Virus record (IMG/VR): IMGVR_UViG_3300034104_004745
Location: 1 to 64,000 of that record
Strand: one strand, 5' to 3'
Length of the DNA stretch: 64,000 bases
Source: a virus
Lineage: Duplodnaviria > Heunggongvirae > Uroviricota > Caudoviricetes
Shown: piece by piece, positions 16,840 through 52,928 of the stretch
Position numbering within the stretch: position 1 is the first letter of the stretch
How the letters are laid out: each line of letters begins with the position of its first letter
Program-made: the position numbers and the translations under genes
Notes under the pieces: model-generated
Database searches by the model: none
The model's input: the letters and a program-made list of their open reading frames with translations, nothing else
Told to the model about the DNA's origin: nothing

Positions 16840-18081
16840 TTATTCAGCATCTTTTTCTACTTTATCATCAGACATTGATTCAACACCATCGATAATAAAT
16901 TTAGAACACTTAACAATCACATTTAAATTTACCATAATCTTTTCTTTATTTGCTTTCCATAAAGCTAAGTATGTTGGGTGTTGTGTAACTGGTAATTCAA
17001 AATACTTCATAATAGCATATGATACAGACTCAGCTTGAAGCTCTCTCATCTCTGATGTTTGAGCTGCTGGATCGTCAATGTAGAATGGAGATTTTGTCTT
17101 CCAGTGTAATAATTCGTGAGCAAGCTCGTGAGCAAGTACACTCGCTTCTGCAACACCTTCAACATCAGATGATAAATTAATATGTTCACCAGCACTAAAT
17201 CCTTTTTCCCCACCTTTTGCTGTATCTTTTGTTATTCGTATGTTTAAAGATTCCGCAAACGCTTTTAATCTAGTGGTCAATGCATCAGCAACTTCGCTCT
17301 TTTCATTCTCAGCAAACCATTTAGGTTGTTCTGGTATTTTACCTTCATCATTTAATGGATATGTGTCAGAAATATCATATACCTTACCCATAGAAAATCT
17401 GGTAACAGTTTGACCCTTCTTAACAGCATCGTCAACCTGGCTAAAATCAACACCTGTAGTGTCAACTTCTGCATTTGATTTAACTTGCATTGGGAACCAA
17501 ATCCAAATTGGTGTAGCGCCCTTTACAACCCCTCTATTGGTTTTCTTCCATGTGTTATAACCAGCAACTTTCTTAGCATCTTTCTTTTGTAGATAGATCA
17601 AGAATGAATTGGTTAAACTATAGTTATGGAATCTACTATAGAATGTTAAATAGTTTCTGATAGCAGCATCCATTGCAGCCTGATCTGTAGCATTAGCTAA
17701 GTCGTTAATGTACATATCAAGCTTATCCATGATTAAGTTCTTCTTTGATTGTTCAACATCAGTGTCTTCAATGAAATCCTCAAGCGTTTCTAGATCGTTA
17801 ATGATCTTTCTAAGTTTATTATGACCTTTAATTAAAACATTAATGGCTTCTAACTTATCATAATCACCAACCCAGTGTCCCAGATCTGGTTTCCAATCAA
17901 AGCCTAATTTTCTAAACTCTTTAGATAAACCCATGGTTTCTTTAACCCTGTCTCGCTTATCTTCTTTGTCTGAAAATATAATAATTTTCTTATTGGTATC
18001 GTCTTTTTTAAGGAAAATATCTTCCTTTAAGTTACTTTGTAGCGTTGGCCACTCGGATTCTTTAATTCTAATCTTTTTCAT
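16840..18081 (-). CDS. ArdC-like protein: N-terminal ssDNA-binding ArdC-N (DUF1738) domain plus a C-terminal zincin HExxH metallopeptidase domain.
   Basis: RFHNYSLTNSFLIYLQKKDAKKVAGYNTWKKTNRGVVKG matches the ArdC-N signature. AHELAHELLHW carries HExxH. Confidence 0.55.
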   Translation of the reverse strand: MKKIRIKESEWPTLQSNLKEDIFLKKDDTNKKIIIFSDKEDKRDRVKETMGLSKEFRKLGFDWKPDLGHWVGDYDKLEAINVLIKGHNKLRKIINDLETLEDFIEDTDVEQSKKNLIMDKLDMYINDLANATDQAAMDAAIRNYLTFYSRFHNYSLTNSFLIYLQKKDAKKVAGYNTWKKTNRGVVKGATPIWIWFPMQVKSNAEVDTTGVDFSQVDDAVKKGQTVTRFSMGKVYDISDTYPLNDEGKIPEQPKWFAENEKSEVADALTTRLKAFAESLNIRITKDTAKGGEKGFSAGEHINLSSDVEGVAEASVLAHELAHELLHWKTKSPFYIDDPAAQTSEMRELQAESVSYAIMKYFELPVTQHPTYLALWKANKEKIMVNLNVIVKCSKFIIDGVESMSDDKVEKDAE

Positions 18082-37921: not shown

Positions 37922-39052
37922 TTAATTGCTTAATGGCGCTTTTATTGCTGGATGTGATTGATAGTTTTCTAATATTACATCCTTATCACCAAATGAAAAT
38001 ATACCATCCATAACATATACTGTTGGTAGATCAAATGGTTCTCTTTTTATTTGTTCTTTGGCTTGTTCAATATGATTTTTATATAGATGAACATCCCCTA
38101 AGTTACCAATTAATTCATCAGGAACCATGTTCATTTCATCTGCAATCATTTTTAATAGTAAACCATATGATGCAATATTAAAAGGTAGTCCCAAGAATGT
38201 GTCCACAGATCTTTGGTTCCACATCAATGAGATAGCTCTTGTTGGTATATTGTGTTTAATCATTTCATCTTCAGTATAATATTGCGGAAGATTTTCCGTT
38301 AGACCTAATTTTTTATCCATTAAAAGAACTCTTTCAGTTTCATCTAAAACTCTTGTATAAACTTGAAATCCATAATGACAAGGAGGTAAAACCATTTGGT
38401 CTAATTCACCTACATTCCAAGCAGATACCATTAACCTTCTGCTATCAGGATTTGTTTTAAGCTCGTCGATTAGATTTTGAATTTGGTCAATAGTTTTATC
38501 ACCTTCAACGTATGTATCGTTTCCAGTTAATGGGTCTTTCAGTGTGGTTTTAATTAAAGTTTTGGTGTGCCATCCTCTCCATTGTGAACCATATATTGGG
38601 CCTAGCTCTCCCCACTCTTCTGCAAACCCATCATCAGTTTTAATTAGGTTGATAAATTCTTCTTGTGTTAACGGTTCTAAATCGTCTGGATTACTAAATA
38701 ACTTTTCAGTGTCATTATCCATACCCAATATATCTCCACACATATATCCATCAATAATTTCATTTATATATTTGGTATAGTTTTTATACGCGTCACCATT
38801 CCAAATGTTACATCCATTCATCACCAGATACTTGATGTTGGTGCTACCGCTTAAGAACCATATCAACTCAGTTACCATTGTCTTCCAAGCCATCTTCTTA
38901 GTTGTAAGTAATGGAAACCCTTGTGACATTTTATGACGAATTTGTCTACCGAAAACTGAAATAGTTCCAGTACCGGTTCTATCTGTTTTAACAACACCGT
39001 TATCTAAAATGTCCTGTAATAAATCTTGGTATTTACTATCTAATGTGTTCAT
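37922..39052 (-). CDS. thyA: Thymidylate synthase (ThyA family) with two lineage-specific insertions. The start is re-called to the ATG at 39052 (MNTLDSKYQDLLQDILDNG), which aligns with the ThyA N-terminus.
   Basis: The following motifs are present: TDRTGTGT.SVFG, ELIWFLSG.TN, LPPCH (catalytic Cys), LPFNIASY (Asn implies dUMP specificity), GDVHLYKNH and a C-terminal HPAIKAP. There are insertions of about 65 aa and about 30 aa relative to E. coli ThyA. Confidence 0.85.
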   Translation of the reverse strand: MNTLDSKYQDLLQDILDNGVVKTDRTGTGTISVFGRQIRHKMSQGFPLLTTKKMAWKTMVTELIWFLSGSTNIKYLVMNGCNIWNGDAYKNYTKYINEIIDGYMCGDILGMDNDTEKLFSNPDDLEPLTQEEFINLIKTDDGFAEEWGELGPIYGSQWRGWHTKTLIKTTLKDPLTGNDTYVEGDKTIDQIQNLIDELKTNPDSRRLMVSAWNVGELDQMVLPPCHYGFQVYTRVLDETERVLLMDKKLGLTENLPQYYTEDEMIKHNIPTRAISLMWNQRSVDTFLGLPFNIASYGLLLKMIADEMNMVPDELIGNLGDVHLYKNHIEQAKEQIKREPFDLPTVYVMDGIFSFGDKDVILENYQSHPAIKAPLSN

Positions 39053-39407
39053 ATAATCTTTTTTTATTTTCCCTTTCAGTATCGTGTGAGAATATTTCTT
39101 TATATCCAATAATTCGGTGAAATTCTTTGTATGCTTCAGGATGATAATTTTTTAAATGATCTAAACCATATTCATATTCAAATAAGGTTTGCTCATATCT
39201 TTTTTCTTTACTATCCCAACCATCTTCCTCATGTTCTTTATCAATAATTAATTGATTGATAAGATTTTGTAATGAATCTTCTTTACATGTGTTAATTGGA
39301 AGTGGTGGTGCAACCATATTGTCCGGTTTTCTAATTGCAACAAATGTTAAGACTATTATGATGAACGAACCAATAATAAGTCTAATAGCTGTGTCCTTAT
39401 TTTCCAT
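39036..39407 (-). CDS. Membrane-anchored hypothetical protein. The start is re-called to the ATG at 39407 (MENKDTAIRL).
   Basis: ORF with a TM segment. The track start at 39446 is upstream. Confidence 0.4.
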   Translation of the reverse strand: MENKDTAIRLIIGSFIIIVLTFVAIRKPDNMVAPPLPINTCKEDSLQNLINQLIIDKEHEEDGWDSKEKRYEQTLFEYEYGLDHLKNYHPEAYKEFHRIIGYKEIFSHDTERENKKRLYEHIR

Positions 39408-40134: not shown

Positions 40135-40491
40135 ATGCAATTAAGTGTTAATGGTCAAAAGTTTCCAGTTGAGTTAATGTCTTCTCCAGAAGATATCCAA
40201 AAGGGTATGCAAGGTAGAGATAATCTTGATGGTTGTATGGGGTTTAAATTAAAAAAGGGGCACCATACTTTCTGGATGAAAGACTGTTTAATACCGTTGG
40301 ATATTGTATTTGTTTTAAACGGGAGAATCAGTAAAATACATAGGGATTGTCAACCATGCTCTGGTGATGAATGTCAAAGATATCACGGAGCAGCTGATCA
40401 CGTTTTCGAATTCCCATCCGGTGATTGTGAAAGTTTTAAAGAAGGTGATCAAGCTAATCTTTATTTAGGTACAAAATTTAATCCAGCTTAA
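40135..40491 (+). CDS. DUF192 domain protein.
   Basis: GCMGFKLKKGHHTFWMKDCLIPLDIVFV matches the DUF192 core (GLM.R......GMLF....WM.n..ipLDi.F). Confidence 0.55.
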   Translation: MQLSVNGQKFPVELMSSPEDIQKGMQGRDNLDGCMGFKLKKGHHTFWMKDCLIPLDIVFVLNGRISKIHRDCQPCSGDECQRYHGAADHVFEFPSGDCESFKEGDQANLYLGTKFNPA

Positions 40492-40558
40492 GCTTCAACT
40501 TTTAATTTTTTTTCCTTATATTTCTATATAATAAACTATTTATTTAAAAAGAAATACT

Positions 40559-40732
40559 ATGGGATGCGGCTGCAAAAAAAAGAACAATGAACCCCAACAA
40601 ACTACAGAGGGGCAAGCTACAGCAACAGTTGTAACAGATAATCAAACACAACAACAACAACAACAAACACAAGAGCAAGTTGTACAGGTAGCTGTGGCTC
40701 TTCGTGAGATGATTGAAAATAAAGAACTTTAA
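40559..40732 (+). CDS. Small ORF (57 aa) beginning MGCGCKKKN and carrying a poly-Gln tract.
   Basis: ATG at 40559. N-terminal Gly-Cys-Gly-Cys, reminiscent of lipidation or metal-binding motifs. Followed by a weak hairpin and a T-rich tract. Confidence 0.3.
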   Translation: MGCGCKKKNNEPQQTTEGQATATVVTDNQTQQQQQQTQEQVVQVAVALREMIENKEL

Positions 40733-40808
40733 TATATAACGGGCGCCTTTTGGGTTGTCCGTTTATTTTCTTTATTTAAACATATATATAAATAAATAAA
40801 TATTTAAA

Positions 40809-41006
40809 ATGAAAAATAATACTAAACTAACGAGTGTCACCGTAGTGGATGACGTTTACAAAAAATTCAAATTAAAAACTATAGATGGATCTATTAACTT
40901 TCAAAAATTAGTTAACAGAGCAATGGATCTCTATAATAAGGATGACAATTTTCAAGAGAAAATAAATAATCACACTGGGTTATCAAACACCGGATCAAAG
41001 TTTTAA
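40809..41006 (+). CDS. Hypothetical protein (65 aa).
   Basis: ORF at the head of the glycosyltransferase operon. Confidence 0.4.
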   Translation: MKNNTKLTSVTVVDDVYKKFKLKTIDGSINFQKLVNRAMDLYNKDDNFQEKINNHTGLSNTGSKF

Positions 41007-41010
41007 TTTA

Positions 41011-42369
41011 ATGAAGAAAAAAATATTATTGTTATCTGATGATTTAAGAATGTCATCGGGTATCGCTACTATGTCGAAAGAGATTGTGATGGGTACCATT
41101 CACAAATATGATTGGGTGCAGCTTGGCGCCGCAATTAAACATCCTGAGTTCGGTAAAATTGTTGACATAAACGATGATATCCGTAAGAGAACAGGTGTTA
41201 AAAACGCTAATTTAAAAATAATCCCTTACAATGGTTATGGTGATATTGGGGTTTTAAGAAAACTAATTAAGGAAGAAAAACCAGACGCTATTCTCCATTT
41301 CACCGACCCACATTATTGGCAGTGGTTATATGACAATGAGCATGAGATTAGACAACAAGTTCCATTATTGTTTTATCACATATGGGATGATTTGCCAGAT
41401 CCATTATATAATAGAAACTATTATGAAAGTTGTGATTGGTTAGGTTGTATATCTAAACAAACATATGGTATTGTTCATAGAGTTGGTAAATTAGAAAATG
41501 GTTCCACATGGAAACCTTTAGAAAATTGGCAGATCAAATATGTACCTCATGGTATTAACCCAGAAACATTTAAACCATTAGATAAAGTTTCAGATGAGAT
41601 AACACAACTTGTACACGGAGATAAGAAGTATGATTTTGTTCTTTTCTATAATAATAGAAATATCAGAAGGAAACAACCATCAGATGTTATCTATTCCTTT
41701 AAATTGTTTTGTGATAAACTACCAAAAGAAAAAGCTGATAAGTGTTTGTTATTAATGCACACAGCAGCTGTAGATGAAAATGGTACAGACTTACCTGCTG
41801 TTATTGAGGCGCTATGCCCATATGATGTTAAATTCACTGGATTAAAGTTAGAGCAAGATAAGTTAAACGAAATCTATAATCTTGTTGATTGTACAATTAA
41901 CATTGCTAATAACGAGGGATTTGGTTTAACTACTGCAGAATCGTTAATGTCTGGCACACCAATCATCGCTAATGTTACAGGTGGCTTACAAGATCAAATG
42001 GGTTTTGATTTCAGTGAAGATGATTATATTACAATTGGTTCATTACACCACAAGGGGAAATCTAGAAGTTTAGTTCAAGAGGGTGAATGGGTTGAAGCAG
42101 TTTGGCCTGCAGCAATTAATCTAAACGGATCTGTACCAACACCATACATTTTTGATGATCGAGTTAATGATGATGATGTTGCTGACGCTATTATGAAATT
42201 ATATAAAAGCGGAAGAAAGAAAAGAAAAGCAAAAGGATTAAAAGGTAGAGAGTTCATGATGAATAACCTATCAAATAAAATAATGTGTGATAAAATGATT
42301 GAGGGTATTGAAGATACACTTAAGAATTGGGAACCTAAAAAAAGATTTGATTTATATAAAATAGTATGA
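41011..42369 (+). CDS. Glycosyltransferase, family 4-like (GT-B fold).
   Basis: C-terminal NNEGFGLTTAESLMSGTPIIA matches the GT4 E-x7-E region. Confidence 0.7.
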   Translation: MKKKILLLSDDLRMSSGIATMSKEIVMGTIHKYDWVQLGAAIKHPEFGKIVDINDDIRKRTGVKNANLKIIPYNGYGDIGVLRKLIKEEKPDAILHFTDPHYWQWLYDNEHEIRQQVPLLFYHIWDDLPDPLYNRNYYESCDWLGCISKQTYGIVHRVGKLENGSTWKPLENWQIKYVPHGINPETFKPLDKVSDEITQLVHGDKKYDFVLFYNNRNIRRKQPSDVIYSFKLFCDKLPKEKADKCLLLMHTAAVDENGTDLPAVIEALCPYDVKFTGLKLEQDKLNEIYNLVDCTINIANNEGFGLTTAESLMSGTPIIANVTGGLQDQMGFDFSEDDYITIGSLHHKGKSRSLVQEGEWVEAVWPAAINLNGSVPTPYIFDDRVNDDDVADAIMKLYKSGRKKRKAKGLKGREFMMNNLSNKIMCDKMIEGIEDTLKNWEPKKRFDLYKIV

Positions 42370-43625
42370 GTAAACCGTTTTTATTATTTAGAGGGCCGGT
42401 ACAAACTAGAAGTGGGTATGGCGCGCATTCAAGAGACCTTTTACAGGCATTGTATGAAATGAATTCATACGATATTAAAATTGATAGTTGTTCTTGGGGG
42501 TCAACACCACTGACAGCATTAGAGAAAGATAATGTTTTTCATAAGTGGATTGAATCAAATATCATTTCATCATTAGCAATACAACCAGATGTGTATGTTC
42601 AAGTAACCGTACCAAACGAATTTCAAAGAGTTGGTAAGATTAACATCGGAATAACTGCTGGAATTGAAACAACTGTCGCACCTAAATCTTGGGTTGATGG
42701 TTGTAATAAAATGGATATGATTATTACTACATCACAATTTTCAAGTGAGGTATTAATGAGTACTGTTTACAATGAGACAGATAATGTTACAGGTAAATTG
42801 ATCAAACAACATAAGATTGAAAAACCTATAAAGGTTCTTTTTGAAGGTGTTCATAATGACATATTCAATAATGAATATAATGATATTGATTTGAATATCA
42901 ATGAAGATTTCGCATACCTTTTTGTTGGCCATTGGTTGAAAGGTAATTTAGGCCAGGACAGAAAAGATGTGGGTATGTTAATTAAATGTTTTGTTGAAGC
43001 ATTTAAAAATGAAGAAGATAAACCAGCATTGATTCTTAAGACTTCATCAGCAACTTTCTCAATAAAACAAAGAGAAGACTTTGCTAAAAAGATAAAAGAG
43101 CTTGTTGGAAACATTGAGAACCCTCCATCGATTTATCTATTGTTTGGTGAATTAACAGATAAAGAAATGAACAATCTTTACAATCACCCTAAAATTAAAG
43201 CAATGATTAGTCTCACCAAAGGTGAGGGATTCGGTAGACCTTTATTAGAATTTACTATGACTGGTAAGCCTGTGATCGCATCTAACTGGTCGGGGCACAA
43301 AGACTTCTTACCAATGGATAAAGGGATTATGATTGGTGGTAAACTAAATGAGGTAGATGAAAGCGCTATTGACGACTTTATTTTAAAGGGTTCAAAATGG
43401 TTTACAGCAAATTATAATGAAGCCGCTGAAGTTATGAAGATTGTGAAGAGCGACTATCAAAAGTTTTTAGATCGTGCTGAAAATCTGAGAATAGAGAATT
43501 CAACTAAGTTTAGTTTTCAGAGAATGATTGAAGAATTTGAAAAGTTATTACCTAAAACAGTTTCACAAGAAGAATCACCAAAACAAAAACCAATTAATTT
43601 ACCTAAATTAAATAAAATAAAATAG
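42366..43625 (+). CDS. Glycosyltransferase, family 4-like (GT-B fold).
   Basis: KGEGFGRPLLEFTMTGKPVIASNWSG GT4 motif. 4-nt overlap with the upstream GT. Confidence 0.7.
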   Translation: MSKPFLLFRGPVQTRSGYGAHSRDLLQALYEMNSYDIKIDSCSWGSTPLTALEKDNVFHKWIESNIISSLAIQPDVYVQVTVPNEFQRVGKINIGITAGIETTVAPKSWVDGCNKMDMIITTSQFSSEVLMSTVYNETDNVTGKLIKQHKIEKPIKVLFEGVHNDIFNNEYNDIDLNINEDFAYLFVGHWLKGNLGQDRKDVGMLIKCFVEAFKNEEDKPALILKTSSATFSIKQREDFAKKIKELVGNIENPPSIYLLFGELTDKEMNNLYNHPKIKAMISLTKGEGFGRPLLEFTMTGKPVIASNWSGHKDFLPMDKGIMIGGKLNEVDESAIDDFILKGSKWFTANYNEAAEVMKIVKSDYQKFLDRAENLRIENSTKFSFQRMIEEFEKLLPKTVSQEESPKQKPINLPKLNKIK

Positions 43626-43626
43626 A

Positions 43627-43923
43627 ATGGCTAAGAGTAAAACAAAAAAACCGTGGGTGGTTGACTCTATGTTTAGATTAGAAGCACCACAAAGTGCTAG
43701 TTTCATAAGCATACCAAATAATGGAACCTTTAAAGATTGTGAATGGTGTTTTCAATTTGATGATAGTGACCCATTTGTATTCGCATCAACAAAACCTTTT
43801 TATGATGGGAAAGACGCTAAAATAAGTTTCACACTTACAAACCAAACAAACACAAATTTGGTCTTTAAAGACTCTAATACCGGCAAAGAATTTAAAATAT
43901 TCGCAAGAGAAAAACAGTTATGA
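43627..43923 (+). CDS. Hypothetical protein (98 aa) within the glycan operon.
   Basis: ORF with tight coupling (1-nt gap upstream, 4-nt overlap downstream). Confidence 0.45.
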   Translation: MAKSKTKKPWVVDSMFRLEAPQSASFISIPNNGTFKDCEWCFQFDDSDPFVFASTKPFYDGKDAKISFTLTNQTNTNLVFKDSNTGKEFKIFAREKQL

Positions 43924-44543
43924 AAATCAGTTTCGCAATCACAGTATGTAATGAATTAGAAGAAATTAAAAAGTTGGTTCCCTTCTTAATAGAAAACAAG
44001 AGAGCCAATGATGAAGTTGTTATTTTATTTGATAGTAAAAATGGTGATGACCAAGTCATAGATTATTTGTTGCAGTTTAATAAATTACCAAATGTACAAA
44101 CCTGGAAAGGATTTGATTTCAATAACGATTTTGCGGAATGGAAAAATAAGTTAAATGAATATTGTACTGGTGATTATATTTTTCAATTAGATGCTGACGA
44201 ATTAATAAATGAGTATATGGTTAAAAATCTACATGAAATTATCGAATCAAATGAAGAGATCGATTTATTCTTTTTACCTAGAATCAATACAGTAAAAGGA
44301 ATAACCGAAGAGCACATAAGAAGATGGAGATGGAATGTGGATGATAATGGCAGAGTTAACTTCCCTGATTACCAGGGTAGAATATATAAATCTAATTTAA
44401 AATGGGGCGGTAAAGTGCATGAAAGAATTGTAGGTGCTAAGTTTTATTCTTTGTTACCAACAGAAGAAATCTATTCGCTATCACACCATAAAACAATTAG
44501 TAGACAAGAAAAACAAAATGATTATTATGAAAACATTAAATGA
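43920..44543 (+). CDS. Glycosyltransferase-like protein (GT-A/GT2-like, DxD motif DADE).
   Basis: N-terminal FAITVCNE and QLDADE resemble GT2. Weakly supported. Confidence 0.4.
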   Translation: MKISFAITVCNELEEIKKLVPFLIENKRANDEVVILFDSKNGDDQVIDYLLQFNKLPNVQTWKGFDFNNDFAEWKNKLNEYCTGDYIFQLDADELINEYMVKNLHEIIESNEEIDLFFLPRINTVKGITEEHIRRWRWNVDDNGRVNFPDYQGRIYKSNLKWGGKVHERIVGAKFYSLLPTEEIYSLSHHKTISRQEKQNDYYENIK

Positions 44544-45069
44544 GATTTATGAAAAGTATCAATCACCGGAAGGTCATGGTGATAAAGGAACAGCACACAC
44601 ATACATAGATGAGTATGAAAGATTGTTAGCCCCATATAGAAAAAACTCAATCGTTCTTGAAATAGGTTTGTGTGAGGGTGAGTCGATGAGAATGTGGGAA
44701 GAATATTTTATCGATTCAAAAGTTATTGGTGTTGATATCGATAGTAGATACTTGATTAGTTTAATTAACGAGCCTGGACATAATATTATTATTGCTGACG
44801 CAACTAAAAATGATATTGTAGATAAGATTGATGAAAAAATGTTTGATGTTTTAATTGATGATGGTAGTCATAGATTAGCTGATCAGTTAAGCACATTTCA
44901 AATTTTTAAAAATCGAATTAAACCTGGTGGTATCTACATTATAGAAGATGTTGTCGAATTAGATCGAGTAAAAAATATCTTCTTAGGACTTCACAATAAC
45001 GTAGAAATTATCGATAATAGACATATAAAAGATAGACACGATGATGTGTTAATAGTATATAAATTTTAA
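44518..45069 (+). CDS. Class I SAM-dependent methyltransferase (Methyltransf_24/CmcI-like sugar O-methyltransferase family).
   Basis: DKGTAHTY...SIVLEIGLCEGESMRMW (motif I), then VIGVDID. The start is re-called to an ATG at 44518 or 44527. Confidence 0.6.
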   Translation: MIIMKTLNEIYEKYQSPEGHGDKGTAHTYIDEYERLLAPYRKNSIVLEIGLCEGESMRMWEEYFIDSKVIGVDIDSRYLISLINEPGHNIIIADATKNDIVDKIDEKMFDVLIDDGSHRLADQLSTFQIFKNRIKPGGIYIIEDVVELDRVKNIFLGLHNNVEIIDNRHIKDRHDDVLIVYKF

Positions 45070-45072
45070 ATT

Positions 45073-46068
45073 ATGAAAGTATTAATTACAGGTATTGCTG
45101 GACTACTAGGTTCCAGATTAGCAGATTACATCGTTGAAAATCATCCGGACGTTCATATAGTTGGTATTGATGATTTGAGTGGTGGGTATTATGAAAACAT
45201 TAACCCTAAGGTTCCGGAATTTAGAAAATTAAATTTAGTTACAGGTGATTTAGAAAGTTGCTTTGAGGAACATAAATTTGATTACGTCTATCATTTTGCA
45301 GCATATGCTGCTGAAGGGTTGTCACCATTTATTAGACAATACAATTATGAGAATAATTTGGTTGCTACAGCTAGAATAATTAACCAGTGTATTAAACACG
45401 AAGTAAAAAGATTAGTTTTTACTTCAACAATGGCGGTATATGGTCATGGTAATGGTAATATATTTGATGAATCTCAAATACCTCAACCGATAGATCCATA
45501 TGGTATTGCGAAATATGCGTGTGAAATGGATATTCAAGTTGCTGGTGAACAGCATGGGTTAGATTGGTGTATCATTCGTCCACATAATGTTTATGGTATT
45601 AAACAAAACATCTGGGATAAATACAGAAATGTGTTAGGTATTTGGATGTATCAACATATGAATGGCGAGCCAATGACAATCTTTGGTGATGGTGAACAAA
45701 AAAGAGCATTCAGTTATATTGATGATTGTTTAGATGGTTTGTGGAAAGCTTCTCAATTGCCACAATGCTCAAAGGAAGTTATTAATCTTGGTGGAACAAA
45801 ACATTACACGATCAATGAAGCTAACGCAGTATTAAAGCAAGTAATCAAAGATGGTGAAACTGTTTATAAAGAACAAAGACACGAAGTTAAAGCTGCCATA
45901 CCAACTTGGGCGAAATCTGTTGAGCTACTTGGTTATGAAGACAAGACATCTTTATATGATGGTTTAAAAACCATGTGGGAGTGGGCACAGAAACAACCTA
46001 ACAGAGAAAGATTTGTATGGGAATCATATGAATTAGATAAAGGAATTTATAGCTTTTGGAAAAAATAA
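45073..46068 (+). CDS. NAD-dependent nucleotide-sugar epimerase/dehydratase (extended SDR).
   Basis: Rossmann GIAGLLGSRL (GxxGxxG) and catalytic YGIAK (YxxxK). Confidence 0.8.
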   Translation: MKVLITGIAGLLGSRLADYIVENHPDVHIVGIDDLSGGYYENINPKVPEFRKLNLVTGDLESCFEEHKFDYVYHFAAYAAEGLSPFIRQYNYENNLVATARIINQCIKHEVKRLVFTSTMAVYGHGNGNIFDESQIPQPIDPYGIAKYACEMDIQVAGEQHGLDWCIIRPHNVYGIKQNIWDKYRNVLGIWMYQHMNGEPMTIFGDGEQKRAFSYIDDCLDGLWKASQLPQCSKEVINLGGTKHYTINEANAVLKQVIKDGETVYKEQRHEVKAAIPTWAKSVELLGYEDKTSLYDGLKTMWEWAQKQPNRERFVWESYELDKGIYSFWKK

Positions 46069-46072
46069 GAAT

Positions 46073-46654
46073 ATGAAAAAAATAGAATTTATTATCCCAA
46101 CGTATAATAGACCAGATAAATTAATGGTTATGTTATCATCAATAAAAGCACAATCTGTTGATTTATGGAAAGTGCATGTTGTTGCTGATGCTGTATATGA
46201 TGGGTATCAAGAAATAAAAGATTACTTTAAAAATGATGAGAGATTTATATTCTCTGAATTAAATGGCCCACACAAAGATTGGGGGCACACAGCTAGAAAC
46301 TATGGCTTAGAAAGAGCAGAAGAAGACTGGGTGGTGATGTCTGGTGACGATAACTATTATGTACCAATTTTCGTTGAGGCTTTTTTAGAATCGATTAAAT
46401 ATAGAAAAGATGTTAACTTTGTTCATTGTAACTTAGTACACAATTGGATTAACAATGAATACATCGGGTTATTATCAAGACCTCAAGTAAATGGTATTGA
46501 TATTGGTAACTTTATGACTAAAACAAAATTTGCGAAACAGATGAGATTAGATGTTACTAAAGTAAACGCTGACGGTATCTTTGTAGAAGAATACCTAGAA
46601 AAATTTAAGGGTAACATTATTCACATTCAAAAAATATTATATGTCCATAACTAA
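46073..46654 (+). CDS. Glycosyltransferase family 2 (GT-A fold).
   Basis: N-terminal EFIIPTYNRPDKL is the canonical GT2 start. SGDDNYY region. Confidence 0.6.
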   Translation: MKKIEFIIPTYNRPDKLMVMLSSIKAQSVDLWKVHVVADAVYDGYQEIKDYFKNDERFIFSELNGPHKDWGHTARNYGLERAEEDWVVMSGDDNYYVPIFVEAFLESIKYRKDVNFVHCNLVHNWINNEYIGLLSRPQVNGIDIGNFMTKTKFAKQMRLDVTKVNADGIFVEEYLEKFKGNIIHIQKILYVHN

Positions 46655-47762
46655 CATAACATTCGTTCTTGCTGTACTTGATAAATTAGATTTAACTAAG
46701 AACTGTTATTCTAGAATACGAGATCTATATCCCACCACACCATTTGTTATAAGTAGTGGTGGTTCAAGTGATGGTACAAAAGAATGGTTGTTAGAAATGT
46801 CCGAGAAAGATGAGAACCTAACAATTTTTCATGATGATGATAGGTTAGCATTTTCAGAAACTTACAACTCAGGAATCAAAATGGTCGATACCGAAAAATT
46901 AGTTTTGATTCACAATGATATGGTTATTGGTGAGGGGTTTTTAGAAGCTATAGAAAGGTTATTAAAACCAAATATGATGTTATCCTATACAACAATAGAA
47001 CCACCAATTTTTAAAGGACATCAAAGACCCGGAAAGGTATTAATTGATTTAGGTTCATCGTTTGATGATTTTGATTATTTTAATTTCAATGCGTATGTTA
47101 GTACACATAACAATAACGATGTTCTATATGATGGCGCAGTTTTCTTTATGAGTGGTTACAAAAAGATGTTTGAAGATGTTGGTTTTTTTGATGGGTTTAG
47201 CTTTGTACCTTGTTTCTGTGAAGATGATGATTTCATAATCAGGGCTAAGTTAAAAGGATATGAATTAAAAACTTGTGAGTCCGCGATCGTATATCATTTT
47301 GTTTCCCAAACGTCTAGATTTAGCGAAGAGTTTAAGAAAAATAGAGTTACCCATGAGGTTTCATCTATTAGAAACTTCGTAAGAAAATGGGGGATAACTA
47401 TAACTGTCTTTAATGAGCTACGCTACTGGGAAGAAAAAGAATTTAAGTATAAAACATTTTCAATGGGATTAATTACAAGAAACAAAAAAAGATTAATGGA
47501 TCTTGAACCGTTTTTTGATAAGATTGATCTGGGTGAAATACCTGAAGAATATATTGAGAATGAGCAAAAAAGAACTAGATACGATATTAGATCTAAATTT
47601 ACATTAACAGATACTGTGGATGTTGTTATAACTGAGGTTGATGAATTTACTGATGAAGATCTACAGACATTACGTAGACTAAGATTATCTATACCATATT
47701 ATGAACCAGGTGAATACCAAATAGGTAATATGTTGATACAAATAAAAAAGGAGCTTAATTAG
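46641..47762 (+). CDS. Glycosyltransferase family 2-like protein (373 aa).
   Basis: FVLAVLDK...YNSGIK...LIHNDMV architecture like GT2. Weaker match than 46073..46654. Confidence 0.45.
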   Translation: MSITNITFVLAVLDKLDLTKNCYSRIRDLYPTTPFVISSGGSSDGTKEWLLEMSEKDENLTIFHDDDRLAFSETYNSGIKMVDTEKLVLIHNDMVIGEGFLEAIERLLKPNMMLSYTTIEPPIFKGHQRPGKVLIDLGSSFDDFDYFNFNAYVSTHNNNDVLYDGAVFFMSGYKKMFEDVGFFDGFSFVPCFCEDDDFIIRAKLKGYELKTCESAIVYHFVSQTSRFSEEFKKNRVTHEVSSIRNFVRKWGITITVFNELRYWEEKEFKYKTFSMGLITRNKKRLMDLEPFFDKIDLGEIPEEYIENEQKRTRYDIRSKFTLTDTVDVVITEVDEFTDEDLQTLRRLRLSIPYYEPGEYQIGNMLIQIKKELN

Positions 47763-47776
47763 CTCCTTCTTTTTTT
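47748..47776. terminator. Bidirectional rho-independent terminator AAGGAGCTtaattAGCTCCTT plus T7. It is embedded in the overlapping 3' ends of the convergent genes 46641..47762 and 47755..48237.
   Basis: Perfect 8-bp stem. T-run on the plus strand and A-run (T on the minus strand) on the other side. Both stop codons lie inside the hairpin. Confidence 0.6.
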
Positions 47777-48237
47777 ACTTCTTTTTTAATCAGTTTAAAT
47801 AGTACCTGATATTTGTCTTTAGACTTACCAGCCTCTTTTAAATCTTCCTTAGTGATTTCAGGATACTCTAATTCAATTTCTTGATTTAAAAGTGTACCAT
47901 ATTCTTTATCAAATTCTATATATTTTGGATTGTACTCACCACCGATAACATTATCATTCTCGTCTTTAATTTCTTTAAGGTACATTTTAACCATGATGCC
48001 ACCCTTACCGTCATCTTCACCATGCTTCTTGATTAAATCGTCTCTTAGACCATCAACCTTAGTTCTTTCACCTTTAAGAACTGATGAGAAATCACTTAAT
48101 TCATATTTTAAAATGATTGATAGGTTTTGTTTGGTAAATCCTTCGAAAATCACTTCACCGTTTTTTGGGTCAACATATCCATTAATTTCGGTTTCTAATT
48201 GTAAAACTTCTCCTAATTTCAATTTAATTTTTTCCAT
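47755..48237 (-). CDS. Hypothetical Lys/Glu-rich protein (160 aa).
   Basis: ORF with TATATTATATAC upstream. Confidence 0.5.
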   Translation of the reverse strand: MEKIKLKLGEVLQLETEINGYVDPKNGEVIFEGFTKQNLSIILKYELSDFSSVLKGERTKVDGLRDDLIKKHGEDDGKGGIMVKMYLKEIKDENDNVIGGEYNPKYIEFDKEYGTLLNQEIELEYPEITKEDLKEAGKSKDKYQVLFKLIKKEVKKEGAN

Positions 48238-48290
48238 AATTTTGCAATTGTTTGTATATAATATATATCTTATTTTTTAAAAAGTCAAGT

Positions 48291-49298
48291 TTATAAAACC
48301 GTCAAAATAGCATAAGTTAACATAAAAGATATCCATATAACTAAAGCTTTTAGATAAGTTAAAAATCCAGTATGAAAGTACTTTTGACCTATCGGTAAAC
48401 ACTTATGTGATGGTGAAATTAGATATGCTGAATACTCTAATGTAAAGAATAAAACAAAGTACTGCATACCAAACACACTAGTTAATAAACTAACAATACC
48501 TGCATATTTTGCTGATGATCCAAGTAAGAATGATGCTACGAATCCTAACACAGAAACAATAAGAATATTTGACGGTGTACTATACTGTTTGATTATTAAT
48601 TCAATTTGTGAATAATATGATCCAACTAGGTTACCAAGAATGATTACTAAAGCAACTATCCAAATCAATTCCCAGTTAACATAGCCCATCAACTTACCCC
48701 AACTCTTAGAGTGATATACCAACCATAGTGTGAACCCAGTAAAGAATCCAAAATAATAATCAGTAAAGAAAACACACATCATGATGGTAACCAAGAATGG
48801 TATAACCACAAGATATATGTTCTTCCAATTAATTGGATCATCTTTAACTTCAATATCGATCTCATCATCATCTAATGATAGTATATAATAACTGATATAT
48901 AATCCTGAGATTAATAACAACGGCCAGATATATGACATAAACTGCACGTAAGTTAAACTTAGTACAGCCATTGGTATAATAACTGTTTTCTCTAACGGTG
49001 ACCATAGATAATAATGATGTGTTGCAAGGTAATCAATGATACCAAACTTCTTACGTTTCTTATTATCGACTGGTGCAATACTATTCAGCATAGATGCTGA
49101 CAATGCTACACGACCAGGTATAGGTAGAATACCACCGAATAGTGATACTAAGAATACCACCATCTTTTTAGATTTAACTTTTTGTTTAAGTAATCTAAAG
49201 ATGTCCATAAGGTACCCTCTTTCTTTGAGGATACCGGTTACGAACATAATGAATATTAAGTAGACAAGAAACTCTTGTCCTTTGATTAAAATCTCCAT
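48291..49298 (-). CDS. Polytopic inner-membrane protein (335 aa, about 9-10 TM segments); Wzy/EpsG-like polymerase or transporter candidate.
   Basis: Multiple hydrophobic segments. Overlaps the start of the OMP gene by 13 nt. Confidence 0.55.
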   Translation of the reverse strand: MEILIKGQEFLVYLIFIMFVTGILKERGYLMDIFRLLKQKVKSKKMVVFLVSLFGGILPIPGRVALSASMLNSIAPVDNKKRKKFGIIDYLATHHYYLWSPLEKTVIIPMAVLSLTYVQFMSYIWPLLLISGLYISYYILSLDDDEIDIEVKDDPINWKNIYLVVIPFLVTIMMCVFFTDYYFGFFTGFTLWLVYHSKSWGKLMGYVNWELIWIVALVIILGNLVGSYYSQIELIIKQYSTPSNILIVSVLGFVASFLLGSSAKYAGIVSLLTSVFGMQYFVLFFTLEYSAYLISPSHKCLPIGQKYFHTGFLTYLKALVIWISFMLTYAILTVL

Positions 49299-50170
49299 GC
49301 AAATATAATTGTGGTTCTAGATAATTTTGCGTCTTGATTAAGTCCTGGCATGTGTTCAATATTTAAATAACCTTTGTTACTAAAACGATATTGAACTAGA
49401 GGACCAAGATACCATTCTTGTGAACCACCATCAAAGTCGTTGTATCTAAACATATGTGAAACACCTAATGTTAAATCATTATTAATGATGTTAGCATATG
49501 ATGCGGTGTATGCATATTCATCTTCACGAAGTTCTTTGTTTCTAGATAAATTACCTTCATAGATTGCGTTGAAGCCCCATATACCACTTTTACCAATTCT
49601 ATCACCTAATAATAATTTAGGTTCAATACCCCAGTGACCGTCTAACATTTTGGTTTCCCAATACAATGTAGGATTACCCCATAGTTTGCCCCAATCAGCT
49701 AAAGCGTATCGAAACTCCCAGGAGAATCCTCTCCATTTAAATTGTTTATCACCATTGTAACCATCATACACAGTGTGTGAATATAAATCTAATTGCAATC
49801 GTTTACCTAAACCAAATGTAAACTCATCTCTCATTCTTATTTGAGCTGGACCATTTCTTCTTTGTCTAATATCAAACCACTTCTCATACATTGCTGTACC
49901 TGGAGGATTCATTACGTAAACTCTTGTAGATGCAAACATTCTCATTGTAGTCCAAAGTGGTTGACCATAAGGACCGACTTTGGTCATCAATGGTACTTTC
50001 TTTGCTGTAACAACGATCTCTTGTAATTGATTAGGGACACTGTCCGTTTGAACTTTTAAGGATTGTTCTGAACCTTTCTGAATTGCGCTACTACTATACT
50101 GTCCAAATGACATAGTGGTAGTCAACAATGACACTAACATTAGCGATAGTGTTTGAATTGTTTTTCTCAT
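49286..50170 (-). CDS. Outer-membrane beta-barrel protein with a signal peptide (294 aa).
   Basis: MRKTIQTLSLMLVSLLTTTMSFGQ signal. EIVVTAKK plug-like motif. Alternating amphipathic beta strands. C-terminal ...IFAWRF ending in an aromatic residue. Confidence 0.55.
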   Translation of the reverse strand: MRKTIQTLSLMLVSLLTTTMSFGQYSSSAIQKGSEQSLKVQTDSVPNQLQEIVVTAKKVPLMTKVGPYGQPLWTTMRMFASTRVYVMNPPGTAMYEKWFDIRQRRNGPAQIRMRDEFTFGLGKRLQLDLYSHTVYDGYNGDKQFKWRGFSWEFRYALADWGKLWGNPTLYWETKMLDGHWGIEPKLLLGDRIGKSGIWGFNAIYEGNLSRNKELREDEYAYTASYANIINNDLTLGVSHMFRYNDFDGGSQEWYLGPLVQYRFSNKGYLNIEHMPGLNQDAKLSRTTIIFAWRF

Positions 50171-50237
50171 TTTGTTTTTTGTTTAAGAAAAGTTTATTAT
50201 TGAATCTAATATAAACAAAAACACCCAAAAAGACAAC

Positions 50238-50903
50238 TTATTTACCAATTAAAAATATACCTAAACCATTCCAAAAATCATCTGGATCTTCACCAGATGT
50301 GAACAGTTGTCTTGAGTGTAAAATGAATAAATTATTTTCCTCAACAAACTTTTCAAACGCACCACTATCCCAGTTCCAATCATCCATTATTATGATTGTT
50401 TCTTTTGATATGATTGGTAGAATGTTTTTTAAAGCAATGTATTGATCATGAAATTTAGTTTCACCATCATAAAAAATAATGTCGGGATTTGGTAGTGTTT
50501 TAAAATCAAACAATTGATAGTCGGTTTTATAAACAGATATCTTATCAACGTCTCCAAATTTTTTTACGTTAGATAAAAATTCTTCTTGTGGTAACACATC
50601 GATATTGTGTTTATAGTAGTTCCCCATTTTTTGACTAACCCCGCGTGGTGTTAGATTGGGTGACATAAAATTATCAATTGCTATTGAGTAGATATCATTA
50701 CCATATATTGCAGAACAAAATGTTGCGCCACGAAAAACACCTATCTCTAGATAGGTTGCACCATCAATGTCACAAATATTATTTAGAAACGATCTAACTT
50801 TATTACTGGTGATTCCATGAATATCCAAAATGTCTTGAGTTAATTTTGATACTTCAAGTTTACCCCATTCAATTGAATCGTCTATATGTTTAACTAAGTC
50901 CAT
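50238..50903 (-). CDS. Class I SAM-dependent methyltransferase (Methyltransf_24/CmcI-like), paralogous in fold to 44518..45069. The start is re-called to the ATG at 50903; the track starts at a GTG.
   Basis: GATYLEIGVFRGATFCSAIYGNDIYSIAIDNF motif I region. Confidence 0.55.
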   Translation of the reverse strand: MDLVKHIDDSIEWGKLEVSKLTQDILDIHGITSNKVRSFLNNICDIDGATYLEIGVFRGATFCSAIYGNDIYSIAIDNFMSPNLTPRGVSQKMGNYYKHNIDVLPQEEFLSNVKKFGDVDKISVYKTDYQLFDFKTLPNPDIIFYDGETKFHDQYIALKNILPIISKETIIIMDDWNWDSGAFEKFVEENNLFILHSRQLFTSGEDPDDFWNGLGIFLIGK

Positions 50904-51927
50904 ATGATTTTTTCTTATGATCTGCAACAATATCACAGTAATTACAATCCCAACATTGGAATTTACATTTCTTTATTTTATTTCTCCAACCCTTAAGTTC
51001 TTCGTGTGGTATACCATCCAAATATATCTCAGATGTTTTAGATAAAACACTTTTACCCGCAGCGTACGAATCAACAATCTCCATAGTTTCATCTAATCGA
51101 TTGAAGCTATCTCTACCATGCATTTTGAATACATCAATATATTCTAAGAATTCGTCAAACTCTTCTTTGAATGGTGGTATAGTTCCTGTCTTAAAAAAGA
51201 AAGCATTAATATCTTTCTCCCATTTGTGTTCACAAGTTACTTTAGAGATCTCGTGATGAAAGTATGGTAACTCATTATTAGTTCTAAGATTGTTATATGA
51301 ATAATGTTCATCCATGACTGGGCACCTTCCTAAACAACCTTCATTAACTAGTAATGATATTTTTACATATCTACCTTTCTCTTCGTAATATTTTAACTGA
51401 GCTCTTTTGATATTTTTTAATTCTTCAACATCTCTCATTAAAATCCTATCAAGATTAATGTAATCAAATCCTTGATCGGCGTTATACCAAAAGTCTTGTC
51501 CAGTTGCCACTTTTCTTAATATGGTATTTTTAATTTCCATCTCTGGAAAATGTTTCTTCAATCCCATTGCAACCCAATGACCATGTGGAATAGTTATACA
51601 TCTTAAACCCTTTTCGTATAAAGGTTTTAGATTATCAATAAACAATTTATAGTTATCGAATCTAGGAGAAACGTTTATGTTGTTGAATGTTGCACTGATG
51701 GAGATACCTAATGCTTTTTGAATGATCATTGCATTATCAAACACAATGTCTCTGTCTTCATCTCTGAACACCGCACCCATCGCATCTTGTGTAAATGGTG
51801 GGACTCTACAGGTAAAATAAATGTCATATATCCATTCCTTATTTCTTTCTAAGAACGGATAAAATTTATTCATGAACATATCTTCCGACATCATCGGATT
51901 AAGTGGTATAGAGAATATCTTTTTCAT
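50890..51927 (-). CDS. Cys-rich protein (345 aa) with a C-terminal CKFQCWDCNYC cluster; possible Fe-S or zinc partner of the adjacent radical SAM enzyme.
   Basis: EGCLGRCP and CKFQCWDCNYCD motifs. 1-nt overlap with the radical SAM gene. No canonical CxxxCxxC. Confidence 0.5.
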   Translation of the reverse strand: MKKIFSIPLNPMMSEDMFMNKFYPFLERNKEWIYDIYFTCRVPPFTQDAMGAVFRDEDRDIVFDNAMIIQKALGISISATFNNINVSPRFDNYKLFIDNLKPLYEKGLRCITIPHGHWVAMGLKKHFPEMEIKNTILRKVATGQDFWYNADQGFDYINLDRILMRDVEELKNIKRAQLKYYEEKGRYVKISLLVNEGCLGRCPVMDEHYSYNNLRTNNELPYFHHEISKVTCEHKWEKDINAFFFKTGTIPPFKEEFDEFLEYIDVFKMHGRDSFNRLDETMEIVDSYAAGKSVLSKTSEIYLDGIPHEELKGWRNKIKKCKFQCWDCNYCDIVADHKKKSYGLS

Positions 51928-52928
51928 TATTTGTTACCTTCTAGACATCCACCACATATACCATTACAATCGCTCTTATAAAAGACACAATCTAAACAGT
52001 CTTGCGGTATAGTATAATTTTTATGATTATCGGTGTAAAGTTTATCAAACTCATCCCTTAAATCTAATATACCACTTTTAGCTGATATTTCCAAAACATT
52101 ATCAATCTTTACCTTATCTTGTAGTGGATAACAATGAATTGAACTTCCATCCGGGAAGACATCCAGTGGCATAAATCCACATATAGTATCATATTCAGGG
52201 ATTTTAAATGTTGCAAAGTTCAAAGAATTTTCTAAAACAGCTTTCTTTGTTTTACCCTCCCATAAACATGGCGGAACTTGACAATCTGAAGTGATCTTAA
52301 TACCGTTATATAAGCCGAATTTAAGGATCTTAGTAATCTCTGCACCCATTTCCCTATTATTGATAAGATAGGTCCCTGTGAGGTCTAATCCGACCCTTAT
52401 TGCGTTTATTTTACCATCAAGCTCGTGGTATAACCATTTGATGTATTCATAGAAGTTTCTATCCTTCCAATCTTTGGACATCGTTACAGCTAAATAAAGT
52501 CTAGGATTAGTATCAAACCCCCAGGTATTGGCATATGCTTTGTAAATTTCTAGGTAGTTCTTTTTAAATAAAACTATTCTATTTTTTTCATTAAGCTCTG
52601 CAGCATTAGGAAACACCCAGCGGATATTTTTGATATTTTCTATTAGATAATCTCTTGTTGTTTTACTAAACAAAAAATTACTAACAAGATTCACCTTAAT
52701 ATTTTTAGAAAAGAGGTGATCCAAAATACCAATAAAATTTGAATGCTGTGTTGGTTCCCCACCTAGAATTGTTATTTCTTCTTGGGGTGATTGTAAATTA
52801 TAATGGTTGATAAGTTTATCAACCATTTCTATTGACATTTCGCCTAAGGTATGTTTTAGTCTTGCGTCTTCTTTGGTGAAGCAGAATGAACATCCTTTAG
52901 CACATGTACCATTAATTGCTAAATTCAT
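51927..52928 (-). CDS. Radical SAM enzyme with a C-terminal SPASM-like Cys-rich domain.
   Basis: CAKGCSFC (C-x3-C-x2-C), the GGEPT SAM-binding motif, and C-terminal CLDCVFYKSDCNGICGGC. Confidence 0.75.
   Translation of the reverse strand: MNLAINGTCAKGCSFCFTKEDARLKHTLGEMSIEMVDKLINHYNLQSPQEEITILGGEPTQHSNFIGILDHLFSKNIKVNLVSNFLFSKTTRDYLIENIKNIRWVFPNAAELNEKNRIVLFKKNYLEIYKAYANTWGFDTNPRLYLAVTMSKDWKDRNFYEYIKWLYHELDGKINAIRVGLDLTGTYLINNREMGAEITKILKFGLYNGIKITSDCQVPPCLWEGKTKKAVLENSLNFATFKIPEYDTICGFMPLDVFPDGSSIHCYPLQDKVKIDNVLEISAKSGILDLRDEFDKLYTDNHKNYTIPQDCLDCVFYKSDCNGICGGCLEGNK

Follow-up and report, generated by a model that had tools for sequence, protein, structure and literature searches.

The glycosylation of virions by virus-encoded enzymes is established for the chloroviruses, the mimiviruses and, since 2023, some mycobacteriophages; to our knowledge, no case is known from aquatic phages or from those that infect Bacteroidota. 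The present analysis concerns a glycosyltransferase operon (40809-47762, plus strand) carried by a tailed-phage genome fragment, the whole analysed stretch of which (64,000 nucleotides, positions 1 to 64,000 of IMG/VR record IMGVR_UViG_3300034104_004745) is hereafter called the window. The operon is larger than any phage glycosylation operon known to us, those of the mycobacteriophages being reportedly smaller, with 2-4 genes. Our tentative reading is that it encodes a cytoplasmic, lipid-carrier-independent phage glycosylation system whose acceptor is made by the phage itself and most likely consists of one or several virion proteins.

In chloroviruses, a conserved core glycan is made by universally present glycosyltransferases and is accompanied by variable outer sugars and O-methylation (PMC7826918, PMC5408694). 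Among the chlorovirus enzymes (the GT4 proteins PBCV-1 A546L / NY-2A B736L, A111/114R and A064R), B736L is the best solved match of both GT4 enzymes of the window, although the likeness is confined to their C-terminal domain; moreover, the chlorovirus genes are scattered instead of operonic and the host is a eukaryote. Megavirinae possess clade-specific fibril glycosylation clusters for rare bacterial-like sugars (PMC10117803). By description, this clade-dependent content matches the lineage-specific cassettes reported below, but the Megavirinae are giant eukaryotic viruses, for whose clusters no conserved framing glycosyltransferases are described.

As for bacteriophages, PMC12619734 cites a precedent for virion glycosylation, the mycobacteriophages (Freeman et al. 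2023), in which soluble phage glycosyltransferases decorate capsid and tail-tube subunits in the cytoplasm, with no lipid carrier. The window operon is of the same type as far as the descriptions can be compared, with soluble glycosyltransferases and no lipid-carrier machinery. The mycobacteriophage acceptors were proven by mass spectrometry, whereas those of the window operon are putative.

The closest cultured phage is Flavobacterium phage immuto, the operon genes of which had already been annotated. It shows the same order as the window, namely a leader open reading frame (ORF), two GT4 genes, a small ORF, a GT2 gene, tailoring genes, an epimerase and a closing GT2 gene, with identities of 47% (first GT4, named GT4-1), 44%, 51% (first GT2, named GT2a) and 26%. 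Its cassette is different and larger: it comprises two aminotransferases, a mannosyltransferase and an acetyltransferase-like 'pilin glycosylation protein', and lies away from the fibre genes. Glycosyltransferases have also been noted as core genes of the moraphages, freshwater jumbo phages with predicted Flavobacteriia hosts, in the form of four core orthogroups; the moraphages and the phage of the window may belong to the same or related lineages. Neither source describes the core-plus-variable architecture presented here and, in the literature searched, no description was found of this architecture, of the restriction of the gene family to phages, or of the capsid-fragment minigene and inteins reported below.

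Operon content and core-plus-variable architecture

The features of the operon and of its borders are the following:

40738..40763, plus strand: terminator-like hairpin, 5' border of the operon (fold -12.4 kcal/mol, z -2.5)
40764..40808, plus strand: A+T-rich leader stretch, putative promoter/operator site (45 nt before the first ATG)
40809..41006, plus strand: leader ORF, 65 aa, core (61/62 complete loci; immuto gp182)
41011..42369, plus strand: GT4-1, retaining GT-B glycosyltransferase, core (PF00534, 33.4 bits vs. a cut-off of 26.4)
42366..43625, plus strand: GT4-2, retaining GT-B glycosyltransferase, core (PF00534, 32.8 bits vs. 26.4)
43627..43923, plus strand: h98, 98 aa, accessory (43/62 loci; conserved C-E-W-C-F-Q-F-D core)
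43920..44543, plus strand: GT2a, GT-A glycosyltransferase, core (PF00535, 38.2 bits vs. 23.3)
44515..45069, plus strand: S-adenosylmethionine-dependent methyltransferase, accessory (PF13578 Methyltransf_24, 27.6 bits vs. 26.3; phrog_21658, E 6e-24)
45073..46068, plus strand: NAD-dependent short-chain dehydrogenase/reductase (SDR), GalE-like, accessory (PF01370, 150 bits vs. 20.9)
46073..46654, plus strand: GT2b, GT-A glycosyltransferase, accessory (PF00535, 55.4 bits vs. 23.3; 24/62 loci)
46641..47762, plus strand: GT2c, GT-A glycosyltransferase, core, last gene of the operon (PF00535, 28.2 bits vs. 23.3)
47744..47772, both strands: bidirectional intrinsic terminator (-12 kcal/mol, z -3.7, T-runs on either strand)

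These nine genes form a real operon, translationally coupled and bounded by two terminator hairpins. All junctions between the nine ORFs are overlaps of 4-29 nt or gaps of 1-4 nt, and the plus-strand block to which they belong (40135-47762) is the only one inside a minus-strand stretch, with a reversal of the sign of the GC skew at this place. The initial annotation of the window had described a single plus-strand operon closed by a strong 3' hairpin, and ORF strands, tight junctions and the stability of the bidirectional terminator all agree with it.

Plus-strand ORFs were called and clustered in 62 related loci carrying a complete operon, which provided 53 gene clusters, i.e. 10 represented in the window operon and about 43 others. 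GT4-1, GT4-2 and GT2c are present in all 62 loci, the leader ORF in 61 and GT2a in 59, while the occupancy of the accessory genes is lower: 49/62 for the SDR epimerase, 43/62 for h98, 24/62 for GT2b and 11/62 for the methyltransferase of the window. The further accessory clusters, about 43 in number, are almost all placed between GT4-2 and GT2c. Those scanned encode enzymes for sugar tailoring, namely UDP-galactopyranose mutase, several methyltransferases (Methyltransf_24/CmcI-RMNT and others), a DegT aminotransferase, transferases of the TOD1/MUCI70-like and GT2_4 types, and DUF3431. Altogether, 34 architectures were found, of 4.35-10.2 kb and with 0-9 accessory genes, from a minimal operon of five genes and 4.35 kb (locus L071) to the largest ones, with 14 genes and 10.2 kb (L027 and L043).

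The cassette is stable within lineages and diverges sharply between lineages. It is identical in 88-95% of the locus pairs with at least 90% GT4-1 identity, vs. a mean Jaccard similarity of 0.28 for pairs with 80-90% GT4-1 identity.

Concerning distribution, GT4-1 has at least 8000 protein homologues at E 1e-10 or better and 274 clusters (50% identity) at E 1e-30 or better, with 430 matches in IMG/VR; the best 120 homologues are 79-97% identical, and their contigs reach about 320 kb. In a set of 185,579 species genomes, GT4-1 was found on only five contigs, all of them in metagenome-assembled genomes (MAGs), and each contig long enough to judge shows phage synteny. Since its cellular occurrences are thus phage-syntenic MAG contigs, the GT4-1 family can be regarded as phage-restricted. 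The GT4 pair is kept in phages of hosts from three phyla (Flavobacterium, Microcystis and Rhodothermus), and the host of the large phage represented by the window is probably a Flavobacteria-type bacterium. Two of the MAG contigs carry the operon together with its flanks: L167 (CBFHJJ010000001.1, 248 kb) was binned as a 'Flavobacteriaceae bacterium', which may reflect the host, and L169 (PAYZ01000021.1) as a 'Methanobacteriota archaeon', which is probably a binning error.

Enzymes and control elements

All enzyme assignments exceed the Pfam gathering thresholds, in agreement with PHROGs. The two GT4 enzymes proposed initially are therefore retained, and the 'two to three' GT2-like enzymes are three. 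In GT4-1, the two glutamates of the E-x7-E motif (E302-x7-E310) are invariant among 16 sequences; in GT4-2, a distant paralogue with 25% identity across the C-terminal domain, E287 is invariant and E295 conserved in at least 90%. The best match in the PDB is chlorovirus B736L for both, with E 3.5e-11 for GT4-1, over the C-terminal nucleotide-sugar domain only, and E 2.5e-5 for GT4-2. An AF2 model of GT4-1 of moderate quality (pLDDT 64.7, pTM 0.65) matches GT-B structures with E values down to 5e-12 and TM around 0.55; in this fold search only generic retaining GT-B matches were obtained, with nothing pointing to an acceptor. GT4-conflict (PF20706) was rejected as a family for the GT4 enzymes, its match being sub-threshold and beneath the stronger PF00534 one. 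Neither GtfA nor GtfB, which glycosylate serine-rich-repeat adhesins, occurs among the PDB sequence or profile matches of the GT4 pair or among the top 50 fold matches of the GT4-1 model.

Long GT4-1 homologues (785-888 aa) might have been taken for GT4-1/GT4-2 fusions, but are intein-containing GT4-1 proteins. These homologues (P0346, P0378 and P0314) carry inteins with LAGLIDADG-type endonuclease motifs, and two insertion sites were observed in or beside the catalytic E-x7-E: 'EGFGL|C...VHN|T/S' and 'NIS|C...VHN|CNEGFG'. Inteins inside a glycosyltransferase are unusual, and their presence suggests that GT4-1 is a highly conserved and important gene.

For the GT-A enzymes, DxD-type acidic motifs are legible in GT2a ('LDADE') and GT2b ('GDDN'), while D93 and E194-D195-x-D197 of GT2c are invariant across the relatives. 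GT2a has homologues in immuto (gp178, 51% identity) and in phage Mel-JY01. GT2c bears a conserved C-terminal extension of about 140 aa with no recognised fold, and its sole PDB match, a weak one, is the O-polysaccharide fucosyltransferase WrtF.

The epimerase/dehydratase proposed initially is confirmed by its PF01370 score. Its sequence contains the GxxGxxG and YxxxK motifs and its best PDB match is the UDP-hexose 4-epimerase of T. maritima (4zrm, E 1e-48), which points to a GalE-like nucleotide-sugar 4-epimerase of the extended SDR epimerase/dehydratase family; it scores below the GalE equivalog TIGR01179 (110.9 vs. 262.3 bits). The methyltransferase had been described as CmcI/Methyltransf_24-type: the Methyltransf_24 part stands, with a score that clears the cut-off narrowly, but no match to PF04989 (CmcI/RMNT) was found, only to generic class-I models, PF04989 being matched by accessory methyltransferases of the relatives. 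Its start at ATG 44515 fits the length of its homologues (179-184 aa) and, judging from the gene context, it probably O-methylates a sugar. No family could be assigned to the 65-aa leader ORF or to h98. The leader ORF was considered as a ribbon-helix-helix repressor and rejected, with no Pfam match even at E up to 5 and no PDB profile match. The homologues of h98 form 31 clusters, every one a small stand-alone protein, and its AF2 model, a four-strand sheet, is poor (pLDDT 63.6) and inadequate for a fold search.

At the 5' border, the hairpin at 40738-40763 ends the transcript of the preceding small ORF, and a hairpin with a T-run occurs at the equivalent position in most related loci. Since this hairpin closes the upstream gene, the operon would be transcribed from a promoter within the 45 nt before the first ATG, or by read-through. 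In the relatives, the hairpin is followed by a palindromic TATATA-N4-8-TATATA element and then by the leader ORF: 78 of the 88 occurrences of this element in the complete-operon loci lie immediately 5' of the leader ORF, vs. none in 0.71 Mb of fibre-region loci. The copy of the window itself is degenerate. The operon accordingly has its own cis element, of a promoter type not shared with the fibre genes. At the other end, the terminator, with its hairpin at 47748-47768, overlaps the stops of two convergent genes, GT2c and the minus-strand gene at 47755-48237. A sigma-70 promoter scan gave a number of matches equal to the shuffle expectation.

A T4-type late promoter was also considered, as TATAAATA is found 14 nt 5' of the leader ORF, but it is uninformative on timing; the 14 copies in the window are about what is expected from base composition, by our own estimate. 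These copies are biased in strand (13 plus, 1 minus), and seven of them lie 3-5 nt before the start codons of ORFs of at least 150 aa, so that the coding strand reads TATTTATA-N3-5-ATG (2361, 9627, 11930, 18086, 27419 and 56730 on the plus strand; 23755 on the minus strand). The orientation at these start codons is opposite to that of the copy before the leader ORF. TATAAATA/TATTTATA may thus serve this phage as a promoter element or in the initiation of translation.

Nature of the acceptor

Under the virion-protein reading, host UDP-sugars would serve as donors, with the GalE-like epimerase providing a second hexose epimer. The retaining GT4-1 and GT4-2 would start the chain with alpha-linked sugars, on a conserved acceptor synthesised in the course of infection, and GT2a, GT2b and GT2c would lengthen the chain, presumably through beta-linkages, which are those formed by inverting GT-A enzymes. 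With one sugar capped by the methyltransferase, the product would be a pentasaccharide or longer, unless several shorter glycans are made instead. The virion protein(s) would be glycosylated before or during assembly, and the particle surface would thus display a conserved inner and a lineage-specific outer glycan. The core-plus-variable layout of the 62 complete loci and the E-x7-E and GT-A acidic motifs, invariant or nearly so across the relatives, were both counted in favour of this reading.

Equally relevant is what the operons do not encode. No polytopic membrane protein is encoded by any of the 53 gene clusters (the maximum KD19 of the core proteins is at most 1.42, vs. 2.54 for a DUF401 control), and the clusters scanned with Pfam include neither a priming phosphoglycosyltransferase nor a flippase, polymerase, ligase or ABC transporter, about 20 rare clusters being unscanned. 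The 'complete-looking' character claimed for the operon applies to a soluble-acceptor pathway only, as it has no nucleotide-sugar synthase, priming transferase, flippase or polymerase.

These absences bear on the possibility that the host envelope is remodelled instead. Peripheral glycosyltransferases would then act on undecaprenyl-linked or lipid-A-core intermediates of the host and alter its lipopolysaccharide (LPS) or capsule, for instance so as to block superinfection or to keep progeny from adsorbing to debris, the export being left to host flippase and ligase. The gene content lends itself to such a function, since O-antigen and capsular polysaccharide (CPS) loci typically draw on these very enzymes (GT4, GT2, epimerase, Glf, DegT and O-methyltransferases) and likewise combine conserved ends with a hypervariable middle. 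The source annotations of GT4-1 homologues read 'involved in cell wall biosynthesis', the only PDB match of GT2c is WrtF, and peripheral glycosyltransferases require no membrane segment. Unlike O-antigen and capsule loci, the 62 phage operons show, among the clusters scanned, neither a priming transferase nor Wzx, Wzy, WaaL or an ABC transporter, and their family is phage-restricted, the GT4-1 family being missing from cellular genomes except for mis-binned phage contigs. Furthermore, the GT4 pair is common to phages of Bacteroidota, Cyanobacteria and Rhodothermus, hosts with dissimilar envelope glycans, and an identity of 70-97% among core enzymes is more in keeping with a conserved acceptor than with host glycans that vary. 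Remodelling of the envelope is accordingly judged unlikely. That the GT4 pair is common to phages of three host phyla, and cellular only on phage-syntenic contigs, argues for a phage-intrinsic acceptor.

An acceptor of this sort could also be the phage DNA, a glycosylated hydroxymethylated or activated base serving to evade restriction and the cassette reflecting an arms race with type IV restriction. Phage clusters with 1-3 glycosyltransferases and an epimerase are known to put mono- to trisaccharides on 5-hydroxymethylcytosine (5hmC), and their GT-B members are often located near thymidylate-synthase homologues (bioRxiv 10.1101/2023.12.21.572611). In the present case, almost every relative has retained a ThyA homologue, situated 1.7-3 kb upstream of the operon, and the glycosyltransferases of distant relatives are found among replication genes. 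However, the ThyA of the window passes the thymidylate synthase equivalogs (NF002496, 330.6 vs. 325; TIGR03284, 314 vs. 108), by which a hydroxymethylase was ruled out, and it is about 50% identical to cellular ThyA, with the Asn of PFNIASY and the C-terminus kept. The T4 alpha/beta-GT and MT-5mYOX-GT (Pyle et al.) clusters also comprise glycosyltransferases and sometimes an epimerase and a second or third glycosyltransferase but, unlike them, the window has no recognisable C5-methyltransferase, TET/JBP dioxygenase, hydroxymethylase or other hydroxymethyl-base-forming enzyme among its ORFs of at least 150 aa scanned with Pfam, PHROGs or NCBIfam over the 64 kb. T4 beta-GT is outside the top 50 fold matches of the GT4-1 model.

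The DNA of immuto, which bears a homologous operon, speaks in the same direction: by liquid chromatography with UV and mass spectrometric detection (LC-UV-MS), its virion DNA contains canonical dA, dC and dT, while the sugar-free deazaguanine fdPreQ1 stands in for all dG (PMC10516641), so that no sugar adduct is present, although immuto is distant (47% in GT4-1). In addition, at least five glycosyltransferases together with O-methylation, galactofuranose and amino-sugar genes exceed the DNA glycans described in bioRxiv 10.1101/2023.12.21.572611. Given a true ThyA next door and the sugar-free DNA of immuto, glycosylation of DNA is highly improbable, in line with the initial annotation, for which the operon did not look like DNA hypermodification. 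This ThyA (37922-39109, minus strand) is long, with 395 aa, owing to an insertion of about 40 residues (around 253-292) and a smaller one (around 180-205) relative to cellular ThyA.

Another candidate is a soluble product, i.e. a free methylated oligosaccharide or glycoside, or else a glycosylated non-structural protein of the phage or host, for which the small operon proteins h98 and c8 are possible acceptors. The top structural neighbours of GT4-1 use small acceptors (maltose-1-P, sucrose-P, trehalose-P, inositol-P and malate), small conserved ORFs follow directly after the GT4 pair, GT2a matches the SunS family of peptide S-glycosyltransferases weakly and below threshold, and the operon possesses its own cis element. 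The fold matches are nevertheless generic for GT4, and the operon has no exporter. As h98 is missing in 19 of the 62 loci, c8 in 35, and both in the minimal operon L071, neither can be the obligatory acceptor. We give this possibility little credence.

It is c8 that hints at an acceptor among the virion proteins. This capsid-fragment minigene, an ORF of 69-142 aa, is found in the operons of 27 of the 62 relatives, in the small-ORF stretch after GT4-2 and usually directly after h98. It matches Pfam Gp23 (E 6e-11) and can be aligned, at 35-48% identity, with a segment of the T4-type major capsid protein of immuto (residues ~296-351), as well as with the capsid proteins of Mel-JY01 and XacN1. Examples are L004:12860-13069, L060:6850-7278 and L031:12875-13126, plus 24 further loci. 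Many copies terminate in '...INGG..RA', and an N-terminal 'M-x-FKFF-x-G' is common to c8 and many h98-family proteins. From its sequence pattern, we take the matched capsid segment to be the strand-plus-spine-helix of HK97-type capsid proteins. In immuto, gp179, gp176, gp174 and gp168 show no relation to h98, c8 or the capsid protein. As for the major capsid gene, none of the 80 capsid loci listed shares a contig with the operon loci.

The proximity of the fibre genes, to which the initial annotation described the operon as directly adjacent, is a weak argument for virion glycosylation. Six minus-strand, non-structural genes (47755-52928) separate the two: a 160-aa hypothetical protein, a DUF401 polytopic membrane protein, a 294-aa hypothetical protein, a Methyltransf_24 gene split into two ORFs, and a radical-SAM gene. 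Beyond the latter are two function-unassigned proteins, three paralogues of 368-377 aa (phrog_1417) and a 1951-aa protein; counted from the operon end, the fibre-region candidates begin after 5.2 kb, the paralogues after 6.7 kb and the 1951-aa gene after 10.1 kb. The Ser/Thr/Asn richness described for the 1951-aa protein was confirmed, with 16.4% Ser, 15.2% Thr (31.6% Ser+Thr) and 11.0% Asn, and long fibre-like runs of "SLNSYTSSNNTRLGxIESTTG"-type repeats, such a richness being usual in tail fibres. The three paralogues do exist, and their family, phrog_1417, carries no function annotation. On 11 contigs carrying both GT4-1 and a paralogue, their spacing is 15.7-23.3 kb and rises with operon length, which indicates that the synteny of operon and fibre region is conserved within the clade. 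It does not extend further, to the cultured but distant relatives immuto, Mel-JY01 and RM378.

Several points weigh against glycosylation of virion proteins. In those three phages, the glycosyltransferase genes lie among replication, lysis and nucleotide-metabolism genes, not structural ones: the immuto operon has as neighbours, at one end, lysis genes together with DNA polymerase A and a PD-(D/E)XK nuclease and, at the other end, small hypotheticals and an HNH endonuclease, that of Mel-JY01 has PolB, the clamp loader and GuaB as neighbours, and in RM378 the genes sit between a PolI-like gene and ribonucleotide reductase. The operon-specific palindrome speaks against a simple co-regulation with the fibre genes. 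The GT4 fold and sequence matches are generic (GlgM, PimB', SPS, OtsA, MshA, BshA), most of these enzymes acting on small molecules or lipid-linked sugars, and the peripheral GT4 and GT2 enzymes of LPS and CPS pathways likewise have no membrane segments. Finally, c8 is absent from the window operon itself and none of the analyses singled out an acceptor. The match to B736L carries little weight in this respect, because the acceptor of B736L is itself unknown (PMC5408694).

Surrounding genes and biological meaning

A few observations concern genes around the operon. The two overlapping ORFs that correspond to the single 519-position PHROGs profile phrog_1458 encode 345 aa and a 232-aa Methyltransf_24 protein, in the window as well as in relatives. 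Beside them, the 333-aa radical-SAM protein has a weak likeness to viperin and NrdG-type activases, and these genes (50238-52928, minus strand) could form a putative second modification module. Upstream, between DUF192 and the operon, a 57-aa ORF (40559-40732, plus strand) starts with 'MGCGCKKK', has a Gln/Thr-rich middle and its own terminator hairpin 3' of it, and is kept in 32 of the 62 related loci. Further away, three minus-strand genes (12686-13225, 2369-2830 and 16840-18081) are candidates for counter-defence or repair, with weak, sub-threshold matches to a 2'-5' RNA ligase/Acb1 (anti-CBASS) and to a pyrimidine-dimer DNA glycosylase, and a match to phrog_7245 (anti-restriction in PHROGs).

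As a whole, the locus is a core feature of a very common group of uncultured phages, and the combination of conserved framing enzymes with a tailoring cassette that changes between lineages is what marks surface structures on which diversifying selection acts. If the virion is the acceptor, these phages would show a serotype-like glycan diversity, which would matter for their host range, for the stability of the particles and for their recognition by grazers or immune systems. The question lends itself to a direct test, as cultures exist of both immuto and its host, Flavobacterium sp. LMO8, and the chemistry of immuto DNA is known.

A more specific and rather doubtful proposal is that a globally abundant lineage of large freshwater phages, with hosts of the Flavobacteria type, coats its virions with a glycan whose inner part would be fixed by the four core enzymes and whose outer part, a 'glycan code', would be set by the swappable cassette, while c8-like capsid mimics would dock the enzymes or the glycan. 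Were this true, small operon proteins mimicking a segment of the capsid spine helix would dock enzymes or glycan onto the capsid in many lineages, and the glycan code would be comparable to bacterial serotypes, but on a phage. Such a coat could serve to tune adsorption, as when Bacteroidota hosts capture it through their glycan-binding uptake systems, or to shield the particle.

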